Part shown: piece after piece, positions 22,636 to 53,861 of the stretch
How the letters are laid out: each line of letters starts with the position of its first letter
Position numbering within the stretch: the first letter of the stretch is position 1
Assembly: GCA_963751395.1 (NCBI GenBank)
Contig: CAVVUC010000002.1
Location: forward strand, 1,172,029-1,236,028
Length of the DNA: 64,000 nucleotides
Source of the DNA: an uncultured Verrucomicrobiae bacterium
GTDB lineage: Bacteria; Verrucomicrobiota; Verrucomicrobiia; Chthoniobacterales; Chthoniobacteraceae
Direction of reading: 5' to 3'
Made by a program: the position numbers and the translations under genes
The notes under the pieces: model-generated
The model's database searches: none
Seen by the model: only the letters and a program-made list of their open reading frames with translations
Told to the model about the DNA's origin: nothing

Positions 22636-23608
22636 CGTCTCCATCATCGGCACCGGAAGCTACGTGCCCGAGAGGGTGATTACCAATGCCGATCTCGAAA
22701 ACATCGTCGATACCACGGATGAGTGGATCCTCACGCGCACAGGCATCCGCGAGCGCCGGATGGCGGCGGACAACGAATTCACGAGCGACATGGCCACCAA
22801 GGCGGCTCGCAACGCCATCGAACAGGCGGGCATCAAGCCGGAGGAAATCGACCTTATCATCGTCGCCACCGTTACGCCGGACATGTTCTTCCCGGCAACG
22901 TCCTGTCTGGTTCAGCGCAATCTGGATGCGAAACGCGCCGCCTGTTTCGACATGTCAGCCGCTTGTTCCGGCTTTCTCTACGGGCTCGAAATCGCGCAGC
23001 AATTCATCACGAGCCACACTTTCAACACCGTGCTCGTCATTGGAGCCGACAAGCTCAGCACGCTCATCGACTGGACCGACCGCAACACCTGCGTTCTTTT
23101 CGGCGACGGCGCCGGAGCGGCCATCCTGCGCACGCGCGCCGGTTCCCACGGGGTCATCACCACTTACATGGGAGCGGACGGAAATTTCGCGGACATCCTT
23201 TCGATGCCCGGCGGCGGGTGCCGTTATCCAATCACGAAGGACAACCTGCACCTGAGGCTCAACACGATCAAAATGACCGGCAAAGAGGTTTACAAACAAG
23301 CGGTCAACGCGATGCTCACGGCCGCCACCGCCGCCCTCGATCAATCCGGGCTGAAGCTCGACGAACTCGCCTGCATCATTCCGCACCAGGCGAATATGCG
23401 GATCATCGAGGCGCTTGCGGACCGCATGAAAGTTCCGCTCGACCGCTTCCTCATCAACCTCGACCGTTACGGCAACACTTCCGCCGCCGCCGTCGCCATC
23501 GCGCTCGACGAGGCCAACCGCACCGGGCGCATGAAGATCGGCGACTATGTGCTGCTCGTTGTTTTCGGCGGTGGATTGACGTGGGCAAGTTCGGTCATTC
23601 AATGGTAG
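22586..23608 (+). CDS. fabH: 3-oxoacyl-ACP synthase III
   Basis: IIGTGSYVPERVITNADLE, the active-site region CSGFLYGL and the C-terminal thiolase fold. The only ATG start overlaps plsX by 50 nt, so the start is uncertain. Confidence 0.85.
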   Translation: MKRPQPRFPRLFKPKRSVSIIGTGSYVPERVITNADLENIVDTTDEWILTRTGIRERRMAADNEFTSDMATKAARNAIEQAGIKPEEIDLIIVATVTPDMFFPATSCLVQRNLDAKRAACFDMSAACSGFLYGLEIAQQFITSHTFNTVLVIGADKLSTLIDWTDRNTCVLFGDGAGAAILRTRAGSHGVITTYMGADGNFADILSMPGGGCRYPITKDNLHLRLNTIKMTGKEVYKQAVNAMLTAATAALDQSGLKLDELACIIPHQANMRIIEALADRMKVPLDRFLINLDRYGNTSAAAVAIALDEANRTGRMKIGDYVLLVVFGGGLTWASSVIQW

Positions 23609-24483
23609 CTTCCAACGTGCTCGTAGAAACACACGCCCATCTTGACTACGCGGACTTCGAGGCCGATCTCGCGGCGGTGATCGATCGCGCGACGGAGGCA
23701 GGCGTGAAACGCATCCTCACCATCGGCACGTCGGTGGAAAGCAGCCGGCGCGCGGTGGCTCTGGCGGAAAAATATCCCGGCGTCATCTACGCCGTCGTCG
23801 GCGTGCATCCGACATCGGCACTTGAAGCCGGGGAGGACATCATCACGCCGCTGCGCGAGCTGGCGAAAAGCCCGCGCGTGGTTGCCATCGGTGAAACCGG
23901 AATCGATTATCACCGCATGCCGAGCCAGGAGCTTCTCGACTCCGACAAGTTCGAGGGAAAATACACCGAGTCGCTCTCGCAGAACCAGCTCTCGGTCGAA
24001 GGTTCAATCCGGGACGGAGCCTACAAGTCGGCGCAGGCGATTTTGTTTCAGGAGCAGCTTGATCTCGCGGTCGAACTCGGGCTCAACATCGTGATCCATC
24101 AGCGCGACGCGTGGGACGACACGCTGGAGATCCTGAAACCTTACACGGGAAAACTGCGCGCCGTGTTTCACTGCTTCGGCAACACTTTTGAACAGGCTCA
24201 GGAGGTGTTGAGTCTCAACCACATGATTTCCTTCACCGGGATCGTGACCTTCAAGAACGCAGCGCTCGTGCAGGAGGTGGCCGCGCGTGTTCCTGCGGAT
24301 TCGTTCATGGTCGAGACCGATTGCCCGTATCTCGCGCCCATGCCGTTTCGCGGCAAGCGCTGCGAACCGGCGCACACACGGCTGGTCGCGGAGGCGATTG
24401 CGAAACTGCGCGACGAGACGTTCGACGAGGTGGCGCGGCAGACGACCGAAAATGCGGAGGCATTTTTCCGGTTCGATCGCTGA
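23602..24483 (+). CDS. tatD: TatD-family metal-dependent hydrolase (DNase)
   Basis: MVASNVLVETHAHLDY...VAIGETGIDYHR...IVIHQRDAW...SFTGIVTF...VETDCPYLAP are TatD motifs. Its start overlaps the fabH stop (ATGGTAG). Confidence 0.85.
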   Translation: MVASNVLVETHAHLDYADFEADLAAVIDRATEAGVKRILTIGTSVESSRRAVALAEKYPGVIYAVVGVHPTSALEAGEDIITPLRELAKSPRVVAIGETGIDYHRMPSQELLDSDKFEGKYTESLSQNQLSVEGSIRDGAYKSAQAILFQEQLDLAVELGLNIVIHQRDAWDDTLEILKPYTGKLRAVFHCFGNTFEQAQEVLSLNHMISFTGIVTFKNAALVQEVAARVPADSFMVETDCPYLAPMPFRGKRCEPAHTRLVAEAIAKLRDETFDEVARQTTENAEAFFRFDR

Positions 24484-24489
24484 TCGCCG

Positions 24490-27400
24490 ATGAGCGGACT
24501 CGACAGCAACGGACAGGTAAAGCCTTTCGTTTTCATGGATCCGGCGGGGAAGCGATGGCCCCGGCTCCGTCTGGCGCTTCTCATCTGTGGCGTCCTGCTT
24601 TTCATCTGTGTCGTCTGGTTTATCGAGTCGCTCTTCGTCAAACCGGAACTGCGTCTGCCTGCGTCGGTTCGCAAACTCAAAGGCCAGCTCAAGGAACTCC
24701 AACACCAAAATGCGCTGGCACAGGGACCCGACAAATCGATCGTCTGGCAGAAATTCTATCCGCAGTCGCAGGCCGCCCGGGAGCGGCTGGCCAAACTTCG
24801 CGAGCAGTTGCACTCGAAGCCGCAGAAACATTTCGGAGAAATCCGGCTGGGCTTTTATGTCGATTGGGACGCGAACAGTTATCAGTCGCTGCTCACGCAC
24901 GCGGGCCAGCTCACGCACGTCTGCCCGGAATGGATGACGGTGGTCGATGGGCTCGGCAATGTGCGTGTGGACGAAGACCTGCGCATCGAGCGTCTGGCGG
25001 TCAGCAAAGGTCTCGTGCTCATGCCGATGCTCAACAACCTTGTCGAGGACACGTGGGCTCCCGAGCCGGTGGAAAATCTCGCGTCCGGTCCCGAAGACCG
25101 CCGCAACAAATTCATCGTGACCCTGCTCTCGCACCTCGAAGACGCCAGGGCGGGCGGCGTGGTCATCGACTGGGAGCAGATTGATCCGAGCTACAAGAAG
25201 CAGCTCGCCGCCTTCCTCACGAAGATCGCCTCCGCCCTGCATGCAGTGGACAAGGAGCTGTGGCTTGTGGTTCCGATGGGCGATGAAATCGAGTCGCTCG
25301 ATCTCGAAGCGCTGGCCGGGACGGTCGATCATTTCATCGCGATCCTTCACGACGAAAACTCCGACACCGATGCGCCCGGCCCGATCGCCTCGCAGGACTG
25401 GTTCGACGGCTGGCTTCAGGTCATCAATGGCTACGGCGAGCCTGGTCAATGGATCGCCGCGATCGGCGCGTATGGATACGACTGGACGAGCGGCAGCAAG
25501 AAGGCCGAGACGATCAGCTTCGCCGATGCCATGAGCCGTGCGAGCTACTCCGGCATCGACAAGGTCGAGATCAAGGAGCCTTCGTTTAACGCAACCTTCT
25601 CCTATTCCGAACCCTTGGGTGAACACACGGTGTGGTTTCTCGACGCCATCACTTTTCTCAACCAGCTTCGTTCCGTGCGGGCCCAGGGGATTGGCGGCAT
25701 GGCGATCAGCCGGCTGGGGATGGAGGACCCGCAAATCTGGGATGTGCTCAGCTTCAAAGATGCGTGGAAGCTCGATGACGCCGCGATCAATCGCCTGAAG
25801 TTCATCAAGACTTCCGACACCATCACCAACGTCGGACAGGGAGAAATCGTGACGGTGGACGACACGCAGGACAACGGTGTGCGCGACGTTCAACTCGATC
25901 CCGGCGGCCGCTTTTCCGCAACCTACAGGGCGGACGCGGACCTCCAGCGAGGGTTCCCGACCTACCCTGTCCTGTATCATCAAGGATCGGGTGGTGAACA
26001 CGACGTCACGATTACCTTTGACGACGGTCCCGATCCGAAATGGACGCCGCAGATTCTGGACATCCTCAAACAACGCGGCGTGAAAGCCGTGTTCTTCCTC
26101 GTCGGGAGGCAGTCGGAGCAATACCCCGGACTCGTGCGGCGCATCGTCGCGGAAGGCCACGAGATCGGAAATCACACCTACACACATGCCAATCTTGCCG
26201 AGCTTTCCACGCGCGAACTCGAACTCGAGATGAATGCGACGCAACGCCTGGTCGAGGCCATCACCGGGCTTTCCACAACGATCTGCCGGCCGCCATACAA
26301 CGCCGATTCGCGACCGACGCAGCTTGCGGAACTCCGGCCGCTAAAGCTCCTGCAAGACGATCTCGGCTACCTCCTCGTGCTCGAAAACATCGACCCGGAG
26401 GACTGGTCCCGGCCCGGAGCCGACATGATCTTGCAGCGTATCAAGCAACTGCGGAAGCTGGGCAGCATCATCCTCCTGCACGACGCCGGCGGCGACCGCA
26501 GGCAGACGGTCGAGGCGCTGCCCGGGATCATCGACTGGCTGCAAACGCGCGGCGATCGCATCGTCTCGCTGGGCACGTTGCTCAACATTCCACGCGACGA
26601 GTTGATGCCGCCGGTAAAGAAGAATGTCGATCCTGTGACGCGATTGGTCTCAGGGACCGGTTTCCGAATCTGGCACGTGGTCGAACAGTTCGGCTGGGCG
26701 TTCATGATCGTTGCCACGGGCTTGATCGTCCTGCGCACGATCATCGTCGCGGCTCTCGCGTGGTATCATCATCAAAAGACGAAGTCGGTTGTGGCCGAGC
26801 CCTTTTCTCCGCCGATCAGCATTCTCATCGCGGCTTACAACGAGGCAAAAGTGATCCAGGCGACGCTTCGTTCCGTCGTGGACACCGATTACGCCGGCGA
26901 CATCGAAGTGCTCGTGATCGACGACGGATCGAGCGATGACACTGCGGGCGAAGTCGGCAAGGCCGCATTTCTGGACAAACGCATCCGCCTTCTTCAGCAG
27001 ACGAATCGCGGAAAAGCCGAGGCGCTGCGCAACGGCCTTGCGCACGCGAAGAACAAGGTGATCGTTTTGCTCGATGCCGATACGCACTTCGAGCGCGGTA
27101 CTCTTGGCGCGCTTGTGCAACCGCTTTCCGACCCAAAAGTTGGCGCGGTTTCCGGCCATGCCAGAGTCGGCAACATGCGCACCTTCATCGCGCGGTGCCA
27201 GTCGCTCGAATACATTTGCGGATTCAATCTCGACCGGCGCGCCTACAGCGAGTGGAACTGCATCACCGTTGCGCCCGGCGCGATCAGCGCGTTCCGCAAA
27301 GCCGCAATCGAAGAAGCGGGCGGCTTCAGTCCCGACACACTCGCCGAGGACACAGACCTCACGCTCAGCCTCCACAGATGCGGCTACCGCATCGATTACA

Positions 27401-27882
27401 CGCCCGGCGCAGTTGCATGGACGGAAGCTCCCGAGACTTTTGCGACTCTGGCGAAGCAGCGGTTCCGCTGGGCTTTCGGAACGCTGCAGTGTTTGTGGAA
27501 GCATCGCGACCTGATCTTCAACCCGCAATACAAGGCGCTCGGCTGGTTCAGTCTTCCGAGCACCTGGTTCTTCCAGATCATCCTCGTCGCAATCACGCCG
27601 GTGGTGGATTTTCTTTTGATTTCGTCGCTGCTCGTTGGTGGCGGCGGGGCGATGTGGGCCTACTTCGTCACGTTCCTTGCGACGGATTTGCTGCTTGCCA
27701 TGATGGCCTGTGCGCTTGATGGCGAGAAGCTGCGCAAGTCGTGGATCATCATCCCGATGCGCCTGATTTATCGGCCGCTGCTCAGCTACGTCATCTGGCG
27801 CTCGATCTTCAAGGCCGTGAAAGGCGCGTGGGTCACCTGGGGAAAACTGGAGCGCACCGCCTCGGTGCCGGCAAGAGCGTGA
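24490..27882 (+). CDS. multidomain membrane protein: GH18-like glycoside hydrolase domain + CE4 polysaccharide deacetylase (NodB) domain + processive GT2 glycosyltransferase (PgaC/IcaA/cellulose-synthase-like)
   Basis: N-terminal TM, then a GH18-type domain (LGFYVDWDANSY; GGVVIDWEQ with DxxDxDxE-type catalytic residues; AYGYDW). A CE4 domain follows (ITFDDGPDP...HEIGNHTYTH). A GT2 domain follows (ILIAAYNE...VLVIDDGSSDDT...LLDADT...QRFRWAFG, the QxxRW motif) with about 4 C-terminal TM helices. Confidence 0.8.
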   Translation: MSGLDSNGQVKPFVFMDPAGKRWPRLRLALLICGVLLFICVVWFIESLFVKPELRLPASVRKLKGQLKELQHQNALAQGPDKSIVWQKFYPQSQAARERLAKLREQLHSKPQKHFGEIRLGFYVDWDANSYQSLLTHAGQLTHVCPEWMTVVDGLGNVRVDEDLRIERLAVSKGLVLMPMLNNLVEDTWAPEPVENLASGPEDRRNKFIVTLLSHLEDARAGGVVIDWEQIDPSYKKQLAAFLTKIASALHAVDKELWLVVPMGDEIESLDLEALAGTVDHFIAILHDENSDTDAPGPIASQDWFDGWLQVINGYGEPGQWIAAIGAYGYDWTSGSKKAETISFADAMSRASYSGIDKVEIKEPSFNATFSYSEPLGEHTVWFLDAITFLNQLRSVRAQGIGGMAISRLGMEDPQIWDVLSFKDAWKLDDAAINRLKFIKTSDTITNVGQGEIVTVDDTQDNGVRDVQLDPGGRFSATYRADADLQRGFPTYPVLYHQGSGGEHDVTITFDDGPDPKWTPQILDILKQRGVKAVFFLVGRQSEQYPGLVRRIVAEGHEIGNHTYTHANLAELSTRELELEMNATQRLVEAITGLSTTICRPPYNADSRPTQLAELRPLKLLQDDLGYLLVLENIDPEDWSRPGADMILQRIKQLRKLGSIILLHDAGGDRRQTVEALPGIIDWLQTRGDRIVSLGTLLNIPRDELMPPVKKNVDPVTRLVSGTGFRIWHVVEQFGWAFMIVATGLIVLRTIIVAALAWYHHQKTKSVVAEPFSPPISILIAAYNEAKVIQATLRSVVDTDYAGDIEVLVIDDGSSDDTAGEVGKAAFLDKRIRLLQQTNRGKAEALRNGLAHAKNKVIVLLDADTHFERGTLGALVQPLSDPKVGAVSGHARVGNMRTFIARCQSLEYICGFNLDRRAYSEWNCITVAPGAISAFRKAAIEEAGGFSPDTLAEDTDLTLSLHRCGYRIDYTPGAVAWTEAPETFATLAKQRFRWAFGTLQCLWKHRDLIFNPQYKALGWFSLPSTWFFQIILVAITPVVDFLLISSLLVGGGGAMWAYFVTFLATDLLLAMMACALDGEKLRKSWIIIPMRLIYRPLLSYVIWRSIFKAVKGAWVTWGKLERTASVPARA

Positions 27883-29117
27883 TGGGATTTCAGATTGCAG
27901 ATTGGAAAGCCTGGCATCGCTTCGCTCGTTGCAGCAGATTTCAGATTGCCCGGGTGCGCACGAAGCGAGGATTTCTTCAATCTTCAATCTTCAATCTTCA
28001 ATCTGTATTGGCCGTCCTCCTTCTTTCCGCGTGCCAGGAGCCGGCGCCCCTGCCCGTCGATCCGAACGCGCCGAAGAAACTCGTCGTCCCTGACAAAGGC
28101 GCCTACACCGGAGCCTACATCGATTTCGGCGATACCGAGGACGACGTCACGCTCGAGGCGATCGAGGACTTCGAGACGCTTGTCGGCAAGCACCAGGCGA
28201 TCGTCGCATCGTCGAGTTACTGGGGCGAGCAGACGTTTCCCGCCGCCAACGTCAGCCTCATCTGGCGGCACGGCTCGATTCCTCTGGTCTTCTGGTCGCC
28301 GTGGGACAAGCCCTACGTCGAGAACGAGGACGACGATGCTCCCGTGTGGTATGCCGCCGCCAACAAGTATTCGCTTTGGAACATCATCGACGGGAAGTGC
28401 GACGACTACATCGACAAATGGGCCGATGGCGCGAAGCAGTTCGGCCAGCCGATGTTCGTTTCATTCTGCAATGAAATGAACGGCATCTGGTTTCCGTGGT
28501 CCGGCATTTTTTACGGAGCCGATGCCGATGTGCCCGGCGAGAAGGACAAAAAAATGGGGCCGGAGACGTTCAAGCGAGCGTGGCGGCATGTGGTCGATCG
28601 GGTTCGCGCTCGCGGCGCCACGAACATCCTCTGGGTTTTCCACCTCATGAACTACTCCATCCCGCAGGACAACTGGAACTACGCGAAGCAGTATTATCCG
28701 GGGCCGGATTACGTGGACTGGCTTGGGCTCAGCGTTTACGGCATGCAGGTTCGCGAGGAACACTGGTCGGAGTTCTCGCAAATCATGGTCGATGGCAAGC
28801 TCACCGGCGGCCTGCTCGACTGGCCTTACGAGGAGTTGTGCCGGATGGATTCAACAAAACCGATCATGCTCGCGGAATGGGGTTGCGGCGAGTTTCCGGA
28901 GTTCGGCGACAAGGCGCGATGGATTCGGGAGGGGTTCGAGGAAATGAGAAAGCGTCCGCGCATCAAGGCCGCGGTGTTCTGGCACGAGCGCTGGCAGAAC
29001 GAAGAGGAGCACTACAGCAACCTTCGCGTGAACTCGTCGCCGGAGTCGCTCGATGCTTACCGCAAAGGCGTGTCCGATCCATTCTGGCTCGACAAGCCGA
29101 TCCTCAAGCCGCGCTAA
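27882..29117 (+). CDS. GH26-like glycoside hydrolase lipoprotein (start uncertain)
   Basis: Lipobox-type signal VLAVLLLSAC. The catalytic region is FVSFCNEMNGIWFPWSG (GH26/GH5 NE-acid motif) and IMLAEWG (nucleophile). A start at ATG 27882 would overlap the upstream stop (TGATG) and translate the heptamer hairpin. In-frame TTG at 28008 is an alternative. Confidence 0.6.
   Translation: MGFQIADWKAWHRFARCSRFQIARVRTKRGFLQSSIFNLQSVLAVLLLSACQEPAPLPVDPNAPKKLVVPDKGAYTGAYIDFGDTEDDVTLEAIEDFETLVGKHQAIVASSSYWGEQTFPAANVSLIWRHGSIPLVFWSPWDKPYVENEDDDAPVWYAAANKYSLWNIIDGKCDDYIDKWADGAKQFGQPMFVSFCNEMNGIWFPWSGIFYGADADVPGEKDKKMGPETFKRAWRHVVDRVRARGATNILWVFHLMNYSIPQDNWNYAKQYYPGPDYVDWLGLSVYGMQVREEHWSEFSQIMVDGKLTGGLLDWPYEELCRMDSTKPIMLAEWGCGEFPEFGDKARWIREGFEEMRKRPRIKAAVFWHERWQNEEEHYSNLRVNSSPESLDAYRKGVSDPFWLDKPILKPR
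27883..28006. repeat. heptamer-tandem inverted-repeat element (CAGATTG units; CAATCTT x4 on the opposite arm) with a nested dyad
   Basis: gggatttcagattgcagattgg...gatttcagattgcc...gatttcttcaatcttcaatcttcaatcttcaatctg. Confidence 0.9.
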
Positions 29118-30285
29118 ACTCCCGCCCGATCGAGCAGCGAAGCGAGCACTTTTTCCGCCTCGAAGTATTCATGCGCCACCTCGTAAGCGGCGCGGCAGTG
29201 CGCGGCGTAGTCGGCGTTGATCTCGCGCACGGCCTCGGTGATTTCATCGAGCGTGCGAAATGCGAACAACCCTCGCTGCTGACCGTAGTGCTTCGTGAAT
29301 CCCGTCTCCTGCGTGATCGCGGGACGGCCTGCGGCGAGGTAGCACGCGGTGCGGTCGCTGAACCAGCCGGTGTTCAAGCGCACATACTGATCCTTCGCAG
29401 CGGTGAACTCGCCCTTCGAGTTCCGGAGGTATCGCAGGTAGTCCATGTAATCGATGCTCATCGGGTTTGGGTCGGTGAACCGCCAGCGGTTCTCGAGGAA
29501 AAGCTCGCGCGTCGGCGCGTCGTTGATCGTCGCTGCGAGTTCGAAGTCCTCGCCCGATCGTGCAGGCGCTTCGACGAATTTCAGAAACTCGAGCGACTTG
29601 CTCCAGAGATATTTGTCGCCGCGCCACTCGATGTCCTTGCGGCCGCTGGTGTTCCAGTTGGCGACGGTCGTGAACACGGCTCCGGCGGGCGGCGGCGCGC
29701 TTGCTTTCCAAAGATCGGTCACGACCGGCTGGCGCGTTGGCAGCCAGGTCAACCCGTGCAGCGGCACGGGAAATTCGTCCGAGCCGATGTTCTCTCCGAA
29801 CGTGAAAAGCGTGCGGTGCTTTTTCAAGTAATCGAGTGTTGTCGTCTCGCCCTTGTCCACCTTGATCTGCTCCACGCCGGGATCGCTCTCGACGTAAATG
29901 ATGCGGCCGCTCTGAGCAGGTCCTCGTTGAATTCCTGCGTGCCGCAGATGTTCAGAATCGCATCGGCCTCGCGGTATAACTCGACGATGCGCGACTTCGG
30001 AAGGCCGGCGCACGGGTGGTCCGGCAGGAAACGCGCGCAATAGCTCCAGCGGCCCTCGAACCCGAATTGCGCCGCGAGCTTTTCGAGAATCGACGCGGCG
30101 TAGCTGTAGTCCTCGTTCTGCTCGTAGGTGACCGGGTTGTACGGATAGCGCGCCGAATCTTCGACGTAGTAAACGTCGTGCCCGAGCCGCTGCAACCCGA
30201 CGATGTAATGGACGTGCTGCCAGATGACGCCCGCGATGGGAACGCCGGCCGTGAAGCCCATGACGACGATTTTCTTTTTTTTCAT
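29114..30285 (-). CDS. GT-B fold glycosyltransferase (GT4-like C-terminal EX7E region), one apparent frameshift
   Basis: The N-terminus MKKKKIVVMGFTAGVPIAGVIWQHVHYIVGLQRLGHDVYYVEDS (ORF 29824..30285) continues in another frame as GRIIYVESDPGV...LAAGRPAITQETGFTKHYGQQRGLFAF (ORF 29114..30352). The shift is near 29885-29900, at a gcggccgc run that needs one more g. Confidence 0.6.
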
Positions 30286-30300
30286 ACCTTTGGACGATGC

Positions 30301-30380
30301 GGAATGTGAATGGTGATTGGTGAATCGTGAATGGCGGAGGTGCGATACTCATTCACGCATTCACCAATCACCATTTACGT
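30301..30380. repeat. heptamer-tandem inverted-repeat hairpin (GAATGTG/AATGGTG/ATTGGTG/AATCGTG versus CATTCAC/CAATCAC/CATTTAC)
   Basis: ggaatgtgaatggtgattggtgaatcgtgaatgg, a 13-nt spacer, then ctcattcacgcattcaccaatcaccatttacg. It sits between the GT start and the acetyltransferase stop. Confidence 0.9.
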
Positions 30381-30965
30381 CTTCAACTCCTTTACAATCA
30401 CCGCAGGGTTGCCGGCGACGATGACGTTTTCCGGGACGCTCTTCGACACGACCGATCCGGCGGCGATGACGGAGTTCTCGCCGATGGTCACGCCTTTCAA
30501 AATCACCGCGTTCATGCCGATCCAGACGTTGTCACCGATTCGAACAGGTTTGGCGGATATCGGCGGGCGTTCCGGGCGCGGCTTGCTGTAGGGTGAGATT
30601 GCCATCGCGTCGATGCGGCGCAAGGCCGGTTCAAGCGGATGAAAATCCGAATCGGCGATGCCGACATTCCACGAGATCAAACAATACGAGCCGATCTCGA
30701 TCGACTCCTCGGCCATGATTAACGCGCCGTTCAGCAGCGTATAATCGCCGACCTTGCAGTGACCGTTCACGCCGATTGAAAACGAGACACCGGCGTAGCA
30801 GGAGACGCATTTGCCCAGTTCAACGGCGGGGTCTTTCTTGCTCTTGATGAAGCGAAAAATTTGGGTGGTTTCGCAATAAAGCCCCTCGTCCCATACGACG
30901 TTTGGCGGGATCGGATGGTGGTACCAATCGTCGTCGATGCGGCGGTCTGCGTTGATGTTGCTCAT
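30375..30965 (-). CDS. hexapeptide-repeat (LbH) acyl/acetyltransferase
   Basis: The C-terminal half has left-handed beta-helix hexapeptide repeats ([31 protein letters not shown]). Its last codons overlap the right arm of a heptamer hairpin. Confidence 0.75.
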
Positions 30966-33040
30966 GTCTTTGATGCGGTTCCGCCGGTCCTGGATTCGCC
31001 GGCTCTGGCTGCGTATTGATCTGCGACGGCTTGAAGCGCGTCCGTATTCACGCCTTCCGTGGCGATGCCGATGTTGCTCTTCTCGCTCACGAGCAGGCTG
31101 AGAAGCTGGCCGACCAGGCTGCTGTTCATGCCTTCGCCATCGCCTCCTCCGCCGCTTACAAACAGGCGTTCCGGCACCAGCGGCTGGCTGCTCTTCGAGA
31201 ATTGCTCCGCGACCAGATTCAACGCGAACAGCCTTGGGTCGCGATAAGCGTTCACCTTCTGCAATGTCACCGCCGCCTCGGACAGGCCGATCTGCGCGAT
31301 GCGCGAGGCCTCGCCTTTGCCGATCAGCTCCTTCGATGTCGCTTCGCCTTGCGCGAGCGCGATCTGCCGCTTCGCGAGCCGCTCGGATTCGGCGAGCTGC
31401 GCTTCGCCGCGGTTGGCGGCCACTTCAATGTCGATCTTCGACTGCGTCAGCTCTGTCTGTTTCGCCGCAGCCGCTTCGGCCTGCTTGAACTGGCGCAGGT
31501 TTTCGGCGGCCTCCTGCTGTTTCACATAGGTCGCCTTCTGTTCGTCGGCGAGCCGGCGCTGGCGCAGTTGATCGAACAGCCGCTCGATCGGGTCCTCCTT
31601 GCCGGCCTCGATTTTCGACTCCGGCCGTCCGATCAGCACGGCGACGCAGTTGATGTCGTATTCCTTGAAACGCGCGCCGAGGGCGACCGTCGCCTGCCGC
31701 TGGATTTCCTCACGCTTGGTGAGCAGGTCGAGCATGCTGCTGTTCTGCGCCACGTCCCGGAAATAGGCCGTGAGAATCGGATCGAGCGTCTGGTTGATGA
31801 GCCGCTTCACGTCGCCGAACCGCTGAATCACGCTGGGTGCCTTTTGGTAATCGATATGCACCACCAGCGAGAGCGGCAGCGTCGGTTCGTACGCATCGGC
31901 GGTGATGAGCGCGATGCTTTCGAGGTTCTCGTCGTATTTGTGTTCCTCGACTTCGTTCGTGATCCAGCGCAGGACGAAGTTGATTGTCGGCACGTATTCG
32001 ATCTTCACCGCGTATGGATTGAGCGCGTATTTGCCCGGCGCGAGCGCGTGGCGCCACACGCCGCGCTGGCCCTTCTCGACTTGCTCGCCGTAGCGAAACG
32101 CATCGCCGCTTACGTCGCTGCCTGTCACGCCGTGATAGGAAACGACAACGCCGACGTAGCCGATCGGCACCATGGTTTTCATCTGAATTTCGATCGTCGC
32201 GAACCATCGGTTGATGAAAAACGTGCCGTCGGTGAGCACCTGCAATTGCTTGCCGCGCTTGCCGCCAAGCGCGAGAAACGCCTCGGGGTCCTGGAAGCAC
32301 TCGTGGTCGGGTTGGCCGCTGCCCGGCTTCACTTCGGGTGCGATGATTTCGCCCGAGGCGATCATCGGGCCGTCCTGCACGCTGACAACGCCGATGGTAT
32401 CCGTCGGCAGCAGATAACCGGGGTCGTTGCCCTCCGCGACTGCTGCTCCGGCGGTCCCGATGATCACAGGCTGGAAGCCGCGCATCATGTCGAGCTGCGT
32501 TTTCCATTGCACATATTTCGTCTCCTCGTCGTCGCGGATCGGTCCCGAAAAAACGCGGTCCTCGCTGATGACGACGAACAGCGCGAGGTTGATCGCGTAA
32601 ACGCCTTCGCGAAGAATGGCGCGTTGTCTGCCGCGATGGCCTTTGTTGCTCAGGAACGCCTGTGCGTCCTGGAAGTGGTTGCTCTCGATCGTCGTGCCCA
32701 GCGTTTGCGTCGCCGGCAGCGGCTCGCCGTCGCGCGCATAGACGTAGCCGATCTTGCCCTGGCCGACTGTTACGAGCGGCTGTTTGTGAACGCGGTATTG
32801 CCACGAATAGAGGCCGAAGTGAATGCCGCCGCGCAGAATGTTCGTCTGGAAACCGGCCTCGCCGCTGCGGGCGATGATCTGGCCTTGCTTGAGCGACCCC
32901 TTGGGGCTCCAGAGTTTTTCGATCACGCCGATCTGCGTGTGCGGGATGTAAACGATTCCGAGCAGGCGTGGGAGGAAGAACAAAACGCCGAGGCCCAGCG
33001 CCAGAAGCAGGAGAGTGAAGACGGAAGGCAATGGGATCAT
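30962..33040 (-). CDS. SPFH/band-7 flotillin-like protein
   Basis: 692 aa with an N-terminal TM and an SPFH-like region. It has a long Ala/Gln/Glu-rich coiled coil ([51 protein letters not shown]) typical of flotillin/YqiK proteins. Confidence 0.5.
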
Positions 33041-34643: not shown

Positions 34644-35541
34644 CTACTTTCCCGCCCGCGGGTCGAGCGCGTCGCGCAGCGCGTCGCCGAGGAAGTTGAG
34701 CGCGAGCAGGGTTCCGGACATCACGAGCGCCGGGTAAACAAGCAGCCACCAGTTGCTGCGCACGGGATTGATCACCTGCGCGCCGTCGCTCATCAACGAG
34801 CCCCAGCTTGCCAGCGGGGCCTGAATCCCGAGGCCGAGGAAGCTCAGGAACGACTTCGTCGAGAATCACGGCGGGAATGGTCAGCGTGAGATAGATGACC
34901 ACGATGCCGACGAGGTTCGGCAGCAAATGGCGCGTGATGATTTTCGCATTGCTCTGGCCGAGGGCGCGCGCGGCGGCGACGAACTGCTGTGACGAAAGCG
35001 CGAGCACCTGTCCGCGCACAATGCGCGCCATCGTGAGCCATTCGATGAGGCCGAGCGACAAGACGAGGATGACGATGCGCGAGTAGCCGACGAGCCAGTC
35101 GAGCCGCAAGGCGAGCAGCCAGTTTTTCACGGTGCTGTCGAAGGTGTTGATGAAAATGAGGATGATGATGAGGCGCGGCACGGCGTAGAGCACCTCGACG
35201 ATACGCATCATGAGCGCGTCCCATTTGCCGCCGGCGTATCCGGCGACGAGCCCGTAGCTGGTGCCAACGACAAGGCTGATGAACGCGCCGGAAAGCCCGA
35301 CGAGAAGGGAGATGCGGCCGCCGGTGAGCACGCGGTGAAGCACGTCGCGCCCGTTCAGGTCCGTGCCGAACGGATGCGCGAGGGACGGCGGCGCGAACTG
35401 GTTCGGCGAGACCTCGCCGTAGCTCGCGGGCATCACGAGCGGACCGATCACCGCCGCGACGGCGACGACGGCGACGACGGCGAGCGAGATTCTCGCGACC
35501 CGTCTTTTCAAAAAGCGCTGCCAGGCTCCGGGTTCAGTCAT
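34644..35541 (-). CDS. ABC transporter permease, DppC/OppC-like (apparent frameshift near the C-terminus)
   Basis: N-terminal region with TM1 and a BPD_transp_1 domain (ORF 34501..35541). The expected C-terminal helices (SFLGLGIQAPLASWGSLMSDGAQ...) are in another frame ending at a stop at 34644-34646, with the shift near 34860-34880. Confidence 0.7.
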
Positions 35542-36454
35542 AGAGCTTGATGCGCCGGTCGAGGAACGTGTAGGCGATGTCCACGGCGAGGTTGAGCACG
35601 ACGAGCAGCGCGCAATAGACGATGACCACGCCGCCGAGCAGAAAGCCGTCGCGGTTTTGAATCGAGTTCACGAAAAATCCGCCCGCGCCCGGGATGTTGA
35701 AAACCGTCTCGATGATGACCGAGCCGGTGAGGAGGTTCGCGGCGAGGGGGCCGAGAAAAGAGACGACGGGCAGGATCGCGACTTTGAGCGCGTGCTTGTA
35801 GATGATGCGCGATTCGGCGACGCCTTTCGCGCGCGCGGTGCGGACGAAATCGGAGCCGAGCACTTCGAGCATGCTCGTGCGCATCAGCCGCGCGATGTAG
35901 GCGACGTAGGGCGCTGCCAGGGTGAGCGACGGGAGCACGAGATCGCTCCAGCTTCCCCAGCCGCCGACGGGGAGCCAGCGCAGCTTCAATCCGAACAGGA
36001 GGATGAGCAGCGGCCCGGTGACAAAAGTCGGCGTCGAAATCGCCAGCAGCGCGACAAACATCGCCCCGGCGTCGGCCGGCGTGTCGCTGCGCACCGCCGC
36101 CCAGCTTCCAAGCCACACGCCGGCCGTCGTGGCGATGAGGAACGCGGCAAGGCCGAGCGTCGCGGAGACCGGCAGCGCCTGCGCCAGCAGTTCGTTCACG
36201 GAGCGGTTGCGATACTTCGTCGAGAGCCGCAGGTCGCCGCGTAGCAGGTCGCAAATGTAGTCGAAGTATTGCCGCGAGAGCGGGCCGTCGAGTTTGTACT
36301 TCGCAAGAAGCTGCTTCTCGATCTGGGGCGGTATTTTTCGTTCGCGATCGAACGGTCCGCCGGGCGCGAGCCGGATGAGGAAAAACGTGAACGACACCAC
36401 GCAGAACAGCACGAGCAGCATGGACGCGAAGCGGCGGAGGATGAAGGCGATCAT
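35534..36454 (-). CDS. ABC transporter permease, DppB/OppB-like
   Basis: 306 aa. MIAFILRRFASMLLVLFCVVSFTFFLIRLAPGGP is the typical DppB N-terminus, with a BPD_transp_1 fold. Confidence 0.8.
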   Translation of the reverse strand: MIAFILRRFASMLLVLFCVVSFTFFLIRLAPGGPFDRERKIPPQIEKQLLAKYKLDGPLSRQYFDYICDLLRGDLRLSTKYRNRSVNELLAQALPVSATLGLAAFLIATTAGVWLGSWAAVRSDTPADAGAMFVALLAISTPTFVTGPLLILLFGLKLRWLPVGGWGSWSDLVLPSLTLAAPYVAYIARLMRTSMLEVLGSDFVRTARAKGVAESRIIYKHALKVAILPVVSFLGPLAANLLTGSVIIETVFNIPGAGGFFVNSIQNRDGFLLGGVVIVYCALLVVLNLAVDIAYTFLDRRIKLYD

Positions 36455-36460
36455 CGGGAA

Positions 36461-36555
36461 AATGACGAATGAATGTCGAAGCCGGAATGTTCAATGACGA
36501 ATGCGCAAACGAACGGGCACATTCGGATTTCGTCATTCGTCATTCGGATTTCGTC
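36461..36555. repeat. heptamer-tandem inverted-repeat hairpin (AATGACG/CGTCATT family) with an inner dyad ccgaatgt...acattcgg
   Basis: aatgacgaatgaatgtcgaag...atttcgtcattcgtcattcggatttcgtcattt. The right arm encodes the C-terminus (EMTKSE) of the DNA MTase, and the left arm abuts the dppB-like start. Confidence 0.9.
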
Positions 36556-37373
36556 ATTTCAAAAAGTTCATCCGACAATCGCTTGCGCGCCTCCTTCAAA
36601 TACTCCTCGTCGATCTCGAAGCCGATGAACCTGCCAACGCCGCATTCCTTTGCGGCGAGCGCGGAGTGGCCGATGCCGAGAAACGGATCGAGCATCACGA
36701 GTCCGGCGCGCTGGCCGTGGAGCTTGATGCATTGCGTGGCGAGCGCGACCGGGAACGTCGCCGGATGCGGGCGCTCCCCGGCGCGGCTCTTGATCGTCTT
36801 GTAGGGAATGAACCAGTTGTTGCCGCGGCAGCGCCGGTCGCGCCCTTCGGTGTGGCCCCAGCGCGCGATGTTGCTCTTGTCCGAGTATGCGACGCCGATG
36901 GCGAGGCGGTCGAGTGTCACGAAGCCACTTTTCGTGAGATGGAAAAGATATTCGTGGCAGTCGGTGATGTAGCGCGGCGAGTTGATCGGCTTGAAATGCC
37001 CCGCCGAAATGTCCAGGCCGTCGCGAGTCGTCACGGTGATCGACTTGATCCAGTGGATCGTGTTTTGCAGCACGAAGAGCGGCCGGAGTTGCAGTACCAG
37101 CTCGTGCGGCAGCATCGGGTTCGCGGGCGCCGCGCCGACGTTGAGAAAAAACGAGCCGTCCGGTTTGAGCACGCGCTTGATCTCGGAGGCCCATTGCCCG
37201 CACCAGTGGAGATATTCCTCGCGCGCCGCGTCGTCGGAATACTTCGAATACGCGATGCCGAGATTGTAAGGCGGCGAGGTCACGACGAGATCGACCGACT
37301 CGCTCGCGAGCGCGCGCATCCCGGCGAGGCAATCGCCGTGATGCAGTTCGAATTCCGTGTTGGTTTCGGGCAT
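36540..37373 (-). CDS. DNA methyltransferase, beta-class amino-MTase (N4-C or N6-A; SPPY motif)
   Basis: From the internal Met: MPETNTEFELHHGDCLAGMRALASESVDLVVTSPPYN (D21-class MTase motif IV). The SAM-binding motif LDPFLGIGHSALAAKECGVGRFIGFEIDEEY is C-terminal, as in the beta permutation. The C-terminal codons EMTKSE* are encoded by a heptamer hairpin arm. Confidence 0.8.
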   Translation of the reverse strand: MPETNTEFELHHGDCLAGMRALASESVDLVVTSPPYNLGIAYSKYSDDAAREEYLHWCGQWASEIKRVLKPDGSFFLNVGAAPANPMLPHELVLQLRPLFVLQNTIHWIKSITVTTRDGLDISAGHFKPINSPRYITDCHEYLFHLTKSGFVTLDRLAIGVAYSDKSNIARWGHTEGRDRRCRGNNWFIPYKTIKSRAGERPHPATFPVALATQCIKLHGQRAGLVMLDPFLGIGHSALAAKECGVGRFIGFEIDEEYLKEARKRLSDELFEMTKSE

Positions 37374-37551
37374 GGCGGAATTGATTAAAGCGAAACGCGG
37401 GGCGGAACCAGCCGAATGTTCGTTTACGCAAAAACCGGCCCGCCGCAACCTGAATTGCTCGCCCGCCGGAAGCGTGCCGCACATTAGCCAGTGGCGCTGG
37501 CCTCCGAACCGCCATCCCAACCCACATCCGCCCCGGCAGGGCGCGGGAATG

Positions 37552-40500
37552 TCACCACGTCTGGCTGCGGGTGCGGTAGGCGCGGGTGAAGCGGTCGGTG
37601 GCCGTCAAGCCGGTGCGCAGGCCGAGGCGGCGGCGTTTCGCGAAGGGCAGGTTTGGCTGGACACGACGGAGCATCGGGTCGGCTTCAAATTCGCGCCAGA
37701 TGGTTTCAAGTTCTGTCTGCGGCAAACCGTAGGCTTCGGCCACGCAGGCATCCACGGCATCCAGCACTTCCTCCAGGGCGGATGCGCCGCTCTCGCCTGT
37801 GAGTTGAACGGCTATCGCGCGCCACCCGGCGAGCGCGGCGGGCGGCGGAATCGGGAGATCGAGGAGCGCGGCGAGGCGCAGACTTTCGCCGGGATGCAGG
37901 AGCAGACCTTCGACAAACGCAGCAGCGAGTTCGCGGTCGTTGAAGGCCGCCCATTTCTCCACGTCGTCGCCGGGCTGGACGATCCATTGGCCGGCGAGTT
38001 CGGTCGTCGCGGGGACACCGATCTCGCATGCTTCGCTGCCTTGGAGCGCGGGGCACCAGTCCACCCGAAGATCCACACTGCCACGCAGGCATTCGCGGAC
38101 GCTCGCCGCGCCGAATGTCGCGAGGCGGTCGCGCAACACCTGTTCGGTCTGGTGAAGCTGCTGGCAGGCGGCGAGAAATCGTGTGCGAAGGGTGCGCAAC
38201 TGCGGCGCAAATTCGAGGAGTCGATCCGTCCACGGCAGTCGGCTCACGGTGGTCACGTAAACATTTGCCCGCGCACGAAAGAGCACCGCTTCGCGATGCG
38301 CAATCGCCCAGACGTATTGATAAATGCGAGAGAGAACGAGCAAGTCGAAGGGAAAGTCAGCGAGACGATCCTCCGGAAAAAAGAGACTTGCCGTATTCAA
38401 CAGAATCAATTCGTGCGGATCGAACGGCGCGCAATAAAGCGCCGGTGCGATGCGATGAAACGCAAAACCCTTCACCGGCAAAATATCGGCGAATCGCCAC
38501 ACGCTGGAGTCGTCCATCCGCAACACGTCGATGTTCGTTTCCACCGGCTCGCCTTCGATCGCTCCAGCCGCGATGTGCTCGCCTTTGAAAACGGGCAATC
38601 CGCCTTCATCGGCAGTGACTCTTTGGCCACGAAATGCCGCGCCCATTCGAATCATCGTCTCCTGTTCCCAGCGCAAATTATCCGCATCGTCGGTCGGTTG
38701 TTCGCGCGCCCAGCGAACGATACGGGCTCCGCGTTTGCCGACAAAAAAGCGCTGCGCAATGTCGCCAAAAGTCTGACCAACGAAACGGTCGAGAATCCGT
38801 TTTCGCTCCGGCGTCAGCCGCGTCAGCCAGCGCCCATCCGCGCTGAACAAATCGGCGTAAGGCAGTTCCACGACCGGCGCGGATTCGAGATCGAAACGGA
38901 CATGCACCTCCTCGCCCTCGGTGAAGACCGCGCACCGCTCGTCCGCGACGCGGAGCCGCACCGTCTCCCCTTCCAGCGCCGGACGCCGCTCCGCGAGCAG
39001 GATCATGCAGACGACATCGGCGCCAAAAAGCTGCGGACTGATCAATTCCAGATCGACAATCTCGCGCACCGTCCAGCGTCCCGTGCCGGGGCGGAAAAAC
39101 TCGCGGAGTTTCGCGCTGTCGTCGTTGTCGCCCACCGAGAGCGGCAGCACGAAGCCGAGGCGTCCCGGCGCGCGTCCTTCGCCGCCATTCGGGCGCAGCC
39201 AGTAGTCGAGCGCTTTGAAAAGAAAGAGATTGCAGAGATTGCTGCGCGCGGAGAATTCCTCGTCAAAGTAGGCGATGGCGGAGGCATCGAGCGGCACGGT
39301 CTGGCGCTCGGGGCGGACATAGGGCGGATTGCCCGCGACGGCGTCGTAACCGTAGGTGTCCACGAGCGCGAACTCGTTCAGCTCTCCGGCGAAAAGCCCG
39401 GCGGAAATCTGCGGCGCGTGCAGTGAATCGTGACCGCCGGTGACGGTTGGTTCGGGGAAACCTTGAGCCTGCAACTGCTCCCGGAAGGCGAACAGATGCC
39501 AGAGGATTTGCAGTTGGGCGATGGTGGCGGAGAAGGCGTTGAGGTCGTTGCCGCGGACATTGGCGAGCGTGGCGAGCGCCTCCTCCCATGTGGCTGCACC
39601 GCGACTGGCCGCATCGCCGATCATCGCCTTCCATGCCTCGATGAGAAACGTGCCGACGCCACAGGTAGGATCGAGCACACGATTGCCGGGGCGCAGGTCG
39701 AGGTGCCTGACGATGAAGCGCGCGACTTCCGGCGGCGTGTAGTGCTCGCCGTATTCCTTGCGTTGCGTGTTGTCGAGGAACTGGCCGTAAACGCCGCTGA
39801 GCACGTCCTGCTCGACCGTGGAGAAATCGAAGCGGGAGAGATAGAATAAGGCGCGCTCGATGGCTGTGGAAAGATGCGGGTCGGCGCAGGTGAGAACCCA
39901 GTCGAGACTGCCTTCCTCGAAAAAGGCCGCCGCGAGATGAGCCGCCGCACCGTAGCTTTCGCGCAGAAACCACGCATAGCCTTTTTCGAATACCCTGCGC
40001 CAGGTCTGAAACGCGGCGACACCGCCGTTGCAGAGGTAGCGTTTCTCTCCGAAAAAACCGTGATCCTCGAAGAATCGCAGCATCACGCACCGGGCGATGA
40101 GCAGACTGGACGTTTCGGAGGCGAGAAGCGTGACGGCGTTGCGGCTCTCTTCTTCCGGCGATTCGCCTTTGGCGCGAGCCTCGTATTCGGCCAGCGTGAA
40201 GCATCCCAGACGCGCCGCCGCGAGATTGTCACGCACCGTCCGCCGGAATGCGGCAACGGCTTCCCGGTGCCGTTTCATGGCCTCGCGGTTCGGGACGTTC
40301 CTTCCGCGAAGCTGGAATGGATCGAGATGAAAAGTCTCGATCTCGAATTCCACCGCAAACGCATCGCGCATCTCTCGGATTTCGCGGGCGCGTTGCGCAA
40401 GCGTTTCGAGAGCACGCTGGCTCGCGAGATTGAGCAGTCCCGCGGCGCTGCGAAGTGCAAGATAGAATTCGGCGCGCGCCTCCGAGAGCGTGAGTTCGTC

Positions 40501-45800: not shown

Positions 45801-45871
45801 AATGTTGAGGGGTTGGGAAGGTGAGTAGTTGAGGATTTTTCTCAACGGCTCAACAACTCAACCCCTCAACG
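45801..45871. repeat. heptamer-tandem inverted-repeat hairpin (GTTGAGG family)
   Basis: aatgttgaggggttgggaaggtgagtagttgagga ttttt ctcaacggctcaacaactcaacccctcaacg, between the PduO-type gene start and the rpoC stop. Confidence 0.9.
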
Positions 45872-45876
45872 AATTA

Positions 45877-50017
<4,141 letters not shown>

Positions 50018-50024
50018 AGGACTT

Positions 50025-53861
<3,837 letters not shown>

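Follow-up and report, generated by a model that had tools for sequence, protein, structure and literature searches.

What does a bacterium gain from a glycoside hydrolase, a polysaccharide deacetylase and a glycosyltransferase joined in one membrane protein? This question is raised by a stretch of 64,000 nucleotides (nt) from an uncultured Verrucomicrobiae bacterium (assembly GCA_963751395.1, contig CAVVUC010000002.1, positions 1,172,029 to 1,236,028), hereafter called the window, in which an open reading frame (ORF) at 24490-27882 on the plus strand starts with ATG and encodes, in a single frame, a membrane protein of 1130 amino acids. We found that this fusion protein, which combines GH18, CE4 and GT2 domains, belongs, as a typical member, to a large family that is widespread and carries only generic annotations, an architectural variant of the MatAB/Pga-type systems. 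It probably makes a partly de-N-acetylated poly-N-acetylglucosamine (poly-GlcNAc) as a self-contained, synthase-dependent machine. The gene and its parts are as follows.

24490..27882, plus strand: fusion ORF, in the order N-terminal motif, transmembrane helix 1 (TM1), GH18-like domain, small beta domain, CE4 domain, transmembrane helix 2 (TM2), GT2 domain, C-terminal helices.
24526..24570, plus strand: conserved N-terminal motif FVFMDPAGKRWPRLR, residues 13-27, probably cytoplasmic (family alignment).
24553..24636, plus strand: TM1, residues 22-49 (hydropathy scan; AlphaFold helix 22-49).
24841..25752, plus strand: GH18 (beta/alpha)8 barrel of the YaaH/YdhD/SleL/CHID1 subfamily, residues 118-421 (Pfam, profile, fold).
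25825..25983, plus strand: small all-beta linker domain, residues 446-498, with conserved G449, E452, G463 and R465.
25990..26604, plus strand: CE4/NodB-type de-N-acetylase, residues 501-705 (Pfam, NCBIfam, motifs, fold).
26692..26760, plus strand: TM2, residues 735-757, within a long helix (hydropathy scan, AlphaFold).
26809..27501, plus strand: GT2 catalytic domain closest to PgaC/IcaA, residues 774-1004 (Pfam, NCBIfam, motifs).
27523..27858, plus strand: three long C-terminal membrane helices, residues 1012-1123 (hydropathy, AlphaFold, Foldseek).

An earlier reading of the same DNA, made from the letters alone (the sequence-only reading), had proposed this three-domain ORF and quoted motifs for each domain. 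The ORF and all of the motifs were present where it had placed them: YVDWD (residues 123-127), GGVVIDWEQ (222-230) and AYGYDW (327-332) in the GH18 part, ITFDDGPDP (508-516) and HEIGNHTYTH (557-566) in the CE4 part, and QRFRW (990-994) in the GT2 part. Its three domain calls were borne out by Pfam and by fold matches of an AlphaFold model, and each domain retains its catalytic residues (D227 and E229 in GH18; the Asp-His-His triad and five motifs in CE4; DxD, ED-x-D and QRFRW in GT2). The model was built on an alignment of 126 sequences and had a mean predicted local distance difference test score of 85.7 and a predicted TM-score of 0.60; two helices between TM1 and the GH18 barrel were of low confidence.

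The Pfam call of the GH18 domain (PF00704) was weak, 33.6 bits against a cut-off of 29.6 over residues 202-407, and was made solid by a profile of 28 diverse copies of the domain, because this profile matched solved GH18 structures: 5jh8 with an E-value of 1e-54, YdhD with 4e-53, SleL/YaaH with 1e-49 and 4e-44, and CHID1 with 2e-27. Foldseek placed the GH18 part of the model on 5jh8 with a TM-score of 0.88 and a root-mean-square deviation of 2.2 Å, so that both family membership and the barrel fold were found. The active-site stretch reads G-G-V-V-I-D227-W-E229; the last Asp and the Glu of the DxxDxDxE motif are kept, and its first two Asp are replaced. We assessed conservation in 126 aligned sequences, mostly Chthoniobacterales relatives of the fusion. 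D227 is kept in 110 of these close relatives and is Asn in 15, E229 is kept in 107 and is Gln in 19, and the groove residues D288, E289, W332, D385, D413 and W417 are invariant. GH18 catalysis, where present, requires the 2-acetamido group of the sugar.

The CE4 domain was recognized by Pfam PF01522 with 116.7 bits (residues 501-610), and the top NCBIfam models for the deacetylase part were PdaB, PgdA and NodB. All five CE4 motifs are present (TFDD with D511 and D512; HTYTH, 562-566; RPPY, 600-603; DPEDW, 635-639; LLH, 662-664) and each is at least 90% conserved. They supply the catalytic base D511 and the Asp-His-His metal triad D512, H562 and H566, as in members of the NodB-homology family, and Foldseek superposed this part on Bc1960 with a TM-score of 0.85. 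The domain is 38% identical to NodB (E 3e-40), whereas its identity to Escherichia coli PgaB is 21% (E 0.022). The PgaB type of enzyme, in which a PgaB-like CE4 is followed by a C-terminal GH153 domain, was thus not what we found; the hydrolase here belongs to GH18.

The GT2 domain was recognized by Pfam PF13641 with 114.8 bits (residues 774-997). It contains the complete motif set of processive GT2 enzymes, D, DxD, (T/A)ED and QxxRW, as DDGS (811-814), DAD (862-864), AEDTD (952-956) and QRFRW (990-994), and positions 953, 954, 956, 990, 991, 993 and 994 are unchanged in every alignment row that has a residue there. As is usual for such enzymes, the catalytic domain is accompanied by membrane helices, which the AlphaFold model places at 1012-1123; domain and helices together superpose on the hyaluronan synthases of Chlorella virus and Xenopus and on BcsA over 410-490 aligned columns (Foldseek). 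By analogy with these folds, the modelled C-terminal helices would form a translocation channel. In BLASTP the domain was 32% identical to E. coli PgaC (E 1e-43, 145 bits), with ED-x-D in both, versus 26% to NodC (105 bits), which has EDR; the NodC model of NCBIfam likewise scored 101 bits on the synthase part versus 190 for PgaC_IcaA.

Hydropathy and the AlphaFold model agree on one transmembrane helix N-terminal of the GH18 domain and one between the CE4 and GT2 domains. A GT2 domain must draw on cytoplasmic UDP-sugar. If the GT2 domain is cytoplasmic, with one helix lying on each side of the GH18-CE4 part, the GH18 and CE4 domains would share one periplasmic loop, the N-terminal motif would lie in the cytoplasm, and TM2 would bring the chain back to it.

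The arrangement of an extracellular CE4 domain, one transmembrane helix and a PgaC-like GT2 domain is that of MatAB-type systems, and it was found in the fusion. MatAB (SCO2963/SCO2962) is required for hyphal aggregation, and its product was identified as poly-N-acetylglucosamine (PNAG) by staining with antibody F598 and by dispersin B sensitivity (PMC5972031, PMC4391728); the product is not stained by calcofluor (PMC5972031). The CE4 domain of MatB looks NodB/PgdA-like and its GT2 domain PgaC-like (PMC5972031, PMC4391728). The CE4-GT2 part of our fusion is 38% identical, over 98% of the length of that part, to a Streptomyces viridifaciens protein of the MatB family. This protein is annotated 'bifunctional polysaccharide deacetylase/glycosyltransferase family 2', and its family occurs throughout Streptomyces and Kitasatospora.

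MatB has a small upstream partner. The matA product is a membrane protein with no known domain, it is translationally coupled to matB, and no PNAG is made without matA (PMC4391728, PMC5972031). The window contains no separate gene of this kind; instead, the N-terminus of the fusion carries the motif and transmembrane helix of the ORFs upstream of matB-like genes at two MatB-family loci. These small ORFs, which lie 5' of the two genes, read ...VFVDASGRRQRRIRR or ...VFVDSSGRRQRRVRR (L085:2891-3658; L087:3388-3933) and consist of the motif (VFVDxSGRRQRR), a transmembrane helix and a Pro/Ala-rich tail, with nothing more. Their position and the description in the two papers suggest that they may correspond to MatA. 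In the fusion family, F15, D17, G20, R22, W23, R25 and R27 are each at least 90% conserved, and the motif phi-F-x-D-x-x-G-[KR]-R-[WR] followed by a transmembrane helix runs across fused, two-domain and stand-alone GH18-like proteins. By eye it is present in nearly all members of the GH18-like family, and 27 of 64 fusions match the strict pattern. It may be, by analogy, that the motif and TM1 are a MatA-like accessory element that supports the synthase as IcaD and PgaD do. We also considered MatA as a free-standing GH18-like domain. This idea was rejected, as the hidden Markov model of the domain found no match in the ORFs upstream of the MatB-like genes of S. viridifaciens and Kocuria. Three GH18 matches on Streptomyces 'plasmid' records (H55-H57) proved to be unrelated: each gene stands alone, and neither CE4 nor GT2 is encoded in its vicinity.

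The architecture is widespread. A search with the GH18-like domain gave 3180 cluster representatives (50% identity) at E <= 1e-3, of which the best 150 were classified: 68 were GH18-CE4-GT2 proteins, 26 were GH18-CE4 proteins, and 55 were GH18 proteins without a CE4 or GT2 match, many of them fragments. The 68 three-domain representatives are about 1100-1150 amino acids long and 28-47% identical to the query domain. When species-representative genomes were scanned with a 7-sequence alignment as query, the domain occurred at 596 or more places. We examined 82 loci, the best 80 of these places plus the duplicates L001 and L002. Of the best 80, 75 retain the GT2 end, and every one of these 75, drawn from seven or more phyla, has the three domains in collinear order. 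A single open frame covers the three domains in 68 of the 82 loci, the remainder being cut by contig ends or frameshifts. Judged by record title, the taxa are Verrucomicrobiota (Candidatus Udaeobacter, Chthoniobacterales, Akkermansia), Desulfobacterota, Acidobacteriota, Gammaproteobacteria (Competibacteraceae, Candidatus Thiosymbion), Bacillus, Neobacillus, a cyanobacterium and Caulobacterales. The GH18-like family also occurs in a Clostridiaceae member and in Gemmatimonadota, relatives from the latter being found with a GC-rich stand-alone GH18-like protein (P0229) as query. Full-length homologues of 30-37% identity lie on plasmids of cultured Bacillus mycoides, B. nitratireducens, Sphingobium and Novosphingobium, and also of cultured Deinococcus, Prevotella nigrescens and Sulfitobacter, among them WP_212091907 of Bacillus mycoides or B. 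nitratireducens and BDX60028 of Sphingobium. Databases give these homologues generic names only, such as 'glycosyltransferase' or the composite name of JGI.

The sequence-only reading had held that having all three domains in one chain is unusual. This did not stand, given that 68 of the 150 best representatives and 75 of 75 loci share the architecture; because hundreds of species carry the collinear fusion, what that reading had itself named as its refutation, an architecture already common in databases, is largely the case. A 2020 operon survey described only deacetylase clades with N-terminal glycosyltransferase fusions and no confirmed product (PMC7112194). Among the representatives, two proteins (P0129, 1541 amino acids; P0139, 1549 amino acids) have two tandem GH18-like domains before CE4-GT2, and three of about 1250 amino acids (P0156, P0159, P0169) have an additional N-terminal membrane segment. 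The annotated flanks on the Bacillus plasmids (spore germination, relaxase, phosphoesterase) have no evident role in polysaccharide synthesis, which fits a self-sufficient enzyme. On a Sphingobium plasmid (L089, 9384-12729) a pair of overlapping hypothetical genes (247 and 866 amino acids) and a two-component system come after the fused synthase, with no GH26-like gene; the two hypothetical genes may encode alternative partner or export proteins.

The fusion has a partner gene in the window, for which two further features are given.

27954..29117, plus strand: GH26-like lipoprotein gene, likely start GTG 27954, with an alternative in-frame ATG at 27882 that overlaps the synthase stop.
27974..28004, plus strand: perfect 7-nt tandem repeat TCTTCAA, 4.4 copies, inside the part that encodes the GH26-like signal peptide.

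The GH26-like protein matched PF02156 with 46.5 bits against a cut-off of 20.2, and its closest solved relative was Lic26A of Clostridium thermocellum (CtLic26A, the GH26 domain of CelH; E 2e-27). GH26 membership was found together with the two catalytic Glu residues, E198 and E332 when numbered from ATG 27882, both of which align to those of CtLic26A; their codons lie at 28473 (acid/base) and 28875 (nucleophile). Starting at GTG 27954 yields the signal peptide MRTKRGFLQSSIFNLQSVLAVLLLSAC with the lipobox LSAC (Cys codon 28032). This start is the likelier one because a canonical lipoprotein signal peptide results; in the closest relative, too, the orthologous protein is a lipoprotein. The TGATG overlap that had been read as possible translational coupling therefore exists at 27882, but it is probably not the start of this gene. 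The view of the GH26-like lipoprotein as a genuine partner was upheld by gene order: the gene lies in the flank of 34 of the 75 loci, and in 30 of them it is directly downstream on the same strand. Such loci include Chthoniobacterales, Desulfobacterota and Gammaproteobacteria, and no GH26-like partner was seen in the examined flanks of the Udaeobacter, Bacillus and Acidobacteriota loci. Gene order thus indicates that the conserved module is two genes, the fusion and the GH26-like lipoprotein. The TCTTCAA repeat was absent from all 91 related loci compared. A gain or loss of a copy would alter the reading frame, because seven is not divisible by three, and phase variation could result. A 13-nt direct repeat (GATTTCAGATTGC) occurs at 27886-27898 and 27937-27949, between the synthase stop and GTG 27954.

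These results suggest the following scheme. It builds on observed domains, catalytic motifs, collinearity, conservation and a partner gene, whereas its topology, its substrate, the sequence of its steps and what the N-terminal motif does are our inference. Three independent domain affinities agree, and the polymer would therefore be GlcNAc-based. The cytoplasmic PgaC-like GT2 domain would polymerise GlcNAc from UDP-GlcNAc and, like the synthases of hyaluronan, cellulose and PNAG, extrude the growing chain through a channel that its own membrane helices would provide. The periplasmic CE4 domain, tethered between TM1 and TM2 beside the channel, would remove a fraction of the N-acetyl groups. The GH18 domain in the same loop would bind stretches that are still acetylated and, because D227-x-E229 is kept, would probably cleave them in the window protein. 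The GH26-like lipoprotein could act as a second glycanase, in parallel to BcsZ, PslG and the hydrolase domains of PgaB and PelA. The N-terminal motif with TM1 would correspond to the MatA-position proteins and may support the synthase like IcaD/PgaD.

Several observations weigh against this reading. The best NCBIfam model for the synthase part, PgaC_IcaA (TIGR03937), scored 190.3 bits and did not reach its equivalog cut-off of 422.3, so the fusion is no equivalog and its product is tentative. GH18 and NodB/PgdA-type CE4 domains normally act on beta-1,4-linked GlcNAc, and the hydrolases known to be specific for PNAG are instead GH20 and GH153 enzymes. About 15% of the close Chthoniobacterales relatives have N-W-Q instead of D-W-E, and the catalytic Glu, kept in 24 of the 28 diverse GH18-domain members, is lost in four. 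The positive-inside rule is indecisive for TM1 (five Lys/Arg on the N-terminal side versus six on the other), and AlphaFold confidence is low at the N-terminal motif, whose docking to the synthase is a proposal. We saw no outer-membrane export component beside the fusion gene, and our literature searches found no paper that describes or tests the GH18-CE4-GT2 architecture.

For the linkage of the polymer the evidence points both ways: the PgaC-like GT2 domain and the MatB precedent favour beta-1,6, the GH18 domain and the NodB-type CE4 domain beta-1,4. If the latter were right, the product would be a chitin- or chitosan-like polymer or oligomer, the fusion would in effect be NodC-NodB with its own chitinase, and the GH26-like enzyme would cut the deacetylated stretches. 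The GH18 domain is indeed of the chitinase/SleL family, the CE4 domain resembles NodB far more than PgaB, the match to the latter having E 0.02, its nearest relatives among solved CE4 structures have beta-1,4 GlcNAc as their substrate, and nodB-nodC pairs are collinear with the CE4-GT2 part. However, the GT2 domain is nearer to PgaC than to NodC by BLASTP and NCBIfam scores alike and shares ED-x-D with the former, and MatB, with the same NodB-like CE4, makes calcofluor-negative PNAG (PMC5972031). We regard a beta-1,4 product as a less likely alternative. A little more credible, though still the less probable view of the domain, is that GH18 serves chiefly as a lectin-like guide without hydrolytic activity, keeping the nascent chain in place for the deacetylase, and that the real glycanase is the GH26-like lipoprotein; this can coexist with the scheme above. 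The substitutions of D227 and E229 beside invariant groove residues suggest that catalysis was lost repeatedly with binding retained among close relatives; the absence of the first two Asp of DxxDxDxE, the loss of the Glu in four of the 28 diverse members, and the description of CHID1, among the closer structural relatives, as a chitinase-like protein point the same way. But the Glu is kept in the window protein and in most close and diverse members, D227 likewise in most of the 126, and many members (Udaeobacter, Bacillus, Acidobacteriota) have no GH26-like partner in the examined flanks. Because N-W-Q occurs in close relatives and the Glu is lost in several distant ones, hydrolysis is not universally required. 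Judged by these residue patterns, glycan binding by GH18 looks universal in the family, and hydrolysis looks likely but dispensable.

Two further explanations fared worse. The GH18 and CE4 domains might act on peptidoglycan and remodel the sacculus around the synthase instead of acting on its product, as their closest solved relatives are peptidoglycan enzymes (SleL/YaaH/YdhD, and the PgdA enzymes Bc1960 and SpPgdA). We consider this most improbable: MatB CE4-GT2 fusions and nodB-nodC pairs tie such deacetylases to the synthase product (PMC5972031), both domains are tethered in one periplasmic loop beside the channel, and the architecture is equally conserved across very different envelopes. 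The sequence-only reading had assigned the whole of 24490-33040 to one polysaccharide-modification locus that also includes a glycosyltransferase (GT)-like gene, an O-acetyltransferase gene and an SPFH gene. The genes are physically close, the hexapeptide acetyltransferase is WbbJ/WcaF-like by NCBIfam, and the GT-like protein has a weak Glyco_trans_1_2 match. Both the acetyltransferase gene (30375-30965) and the SPFH gene (30962-33040) are real, but, being encoded on the minus strand, they run towards the synthase gene. None of the three genes occurs in any related locus, including those of the two closest relatives, and the GT-like gene is frameshifted in the assembly. Since they are on the minus strand, converge on the synthase operon and are absent from related loci, we place all three outside the module; a locus of this wider extent is very unlikely. 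The preferred reading thus remains the self-contained poly-GlcNAc machine with its GH26-like partner.

The surroundings of the two genes are unremarkable. The upstream genes in the window (coaD-like, yceD, plsX, fabH and tatD) are syntenic with one of the closest contigs, the two closest long contigs have TatD, the fusion, the GH26 gene and then unrelated genes, and the GC content is flat across the fusion region. Upstream synteny and flat GC indicate that the pair was inherited vertically in a housekeeping neighbourhood. A promoter and terminator scan of 23400-30500 found no more sites than in shuffled sequence. The GT-B glycosyltransferase gene that had been placed at 29114-30285 could not be confirmed: this span of 1172 nt is not an open frame, and its Glyco_trans_1_2 match is sub-threshold. 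The N-terminal part of the GT-like gene lies in ORF 29824-30285 and the C-terminal part in the frame of 29114-30352, both on the minus strand, so that the frame would shift by 1 nt in GCGGCCGC near 29905 (within 29880-29930, minus strand). The merged protein of 390 amino acids scored 23.2 bits with Glyco_trans_1_2 (PF13524; cut-off 25). This shift is likelier to be an assembly indel, because the window also has an rpoC gene split into several ORFs, and the assembly seems to carry indel errors in essential genes.

Elsewhere in the window, rpoC is split into at least three ORFs on the minus strand (45866-46963, 47228-47716, 47864-49300), each with RNA polymerase Rpb1 domains. An ORF without a Pfam match (49346-50017, minus strand) lies between the rpoC pieces and rpoB, and the rpoB ORF (50014-53034, minus strand) is without the N-terminal Rpb2 domains. 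A likely restriction-modification island at 35538-41103 (minus strand) has a raised GC content of 0.63-0.65; its genes encode a 1183-amino-acid protein with N6_Mtase and Eco57I-type methylase domains (37552-41103) and an N4/N6 DNA methylase (36540-37520).

The window locus itself is ordinary, a typical and vertically inherited member; the leads are the family, the GH26 partner and the shared MatA-like motif. If the scheme is right, one gene, or a two-gene module in this lineage, would cover synthesis, inner-membrane export, partial deacetylation and trimming of a GlcNAc polymer. Because it is present in genomes of Candidatus Udaeobacter, Chthoniobacterales, Acidobacteriota and Desulfobacterota and on plasmids of the Bacillus cereus group, the fusion family could be a common, unstudied source of cationic matrix polysaccharide. 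It may also be a compact model for the coupling of modification enzymes to a synthase channel and for the role of MatA-like elements. Bolder still, and rather unlikely, are the ideas that the family gives bacteria a way to produce a chitin- or chitosan-like beta-1,4 polymer of GlcNAc and glucosamine, with one polypeptide carrying out synthesis, deacetylation and trimming, and, separately, that F-x-D-x-x-G-[KR]-R-W with TM1 is an unrecognised activating element of PNAG-type synthases, equivalent to IcaD/PgaD. Either would, if true, define a new sub-class of synthase-dependent exopolysaccharide systems in abundant soil lineages (Candidatus Udaeobacter, Chthoniobacterales, Acidobacteriota).

Among known systems, CtLic26A shares both catalytic Glu with the GH26-like protein but is a secreted beta-1,3-1,4-glucanase of the cellulosome. 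The GH26-like protein is a lipoprotein whose gene is linked to that of a GlcNAc-type synthase, so its substrate is probably a different one. The GH18 domain shares fold, subfamily and the D-x-E, YD-type and W-x-x-G-x-ED motifs with SleL/YaaH, YdhD, 5jh8 and CHID1; these are soluble or LysM-linked proteins of peptidoglycan or chitin turnover, whereas the GH18 domain of the fusion lies within the periplasmic loop of a synthase. Rhizobial nodB-nodC genes are collinear with the CE4-GT2 part, but NodB and NodC are separate proteins with no GH18 domain, and NodC has EDR instead of ED-x-D. NodB acts in the cytoplasm, and NodB-NodC products are short oligomers. The likening to Pga, Ica and Pel systems in the sequence-only reading was apt. 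PgaABCD and IcaADBC follow the same logic of synthase, partial de-N-acetylation and glycoside hydrolase, and E. coli PgaC shares the DxD, ED-x-D and QRxRW motifs of the GT2 domain. In contrast, PgaB is a separate outer-membrane lipoprotein whose deacetylase is barely related and whose hydrolase is GH153, not GH18, and neither a PgaA porin nor a PgaD/IcaD gene was seen at the window locus. MatA and MatB differ from the fusion in being two proteins, with GH18 in neither (hmmsearch), and no GH26-like partner was seen adjoining MatB-family genes. MatB nevertheless shares with the fusion an extracellular NodB-type CE4 domain, a transmembrane helix and a PgaC-like GT2 domain.

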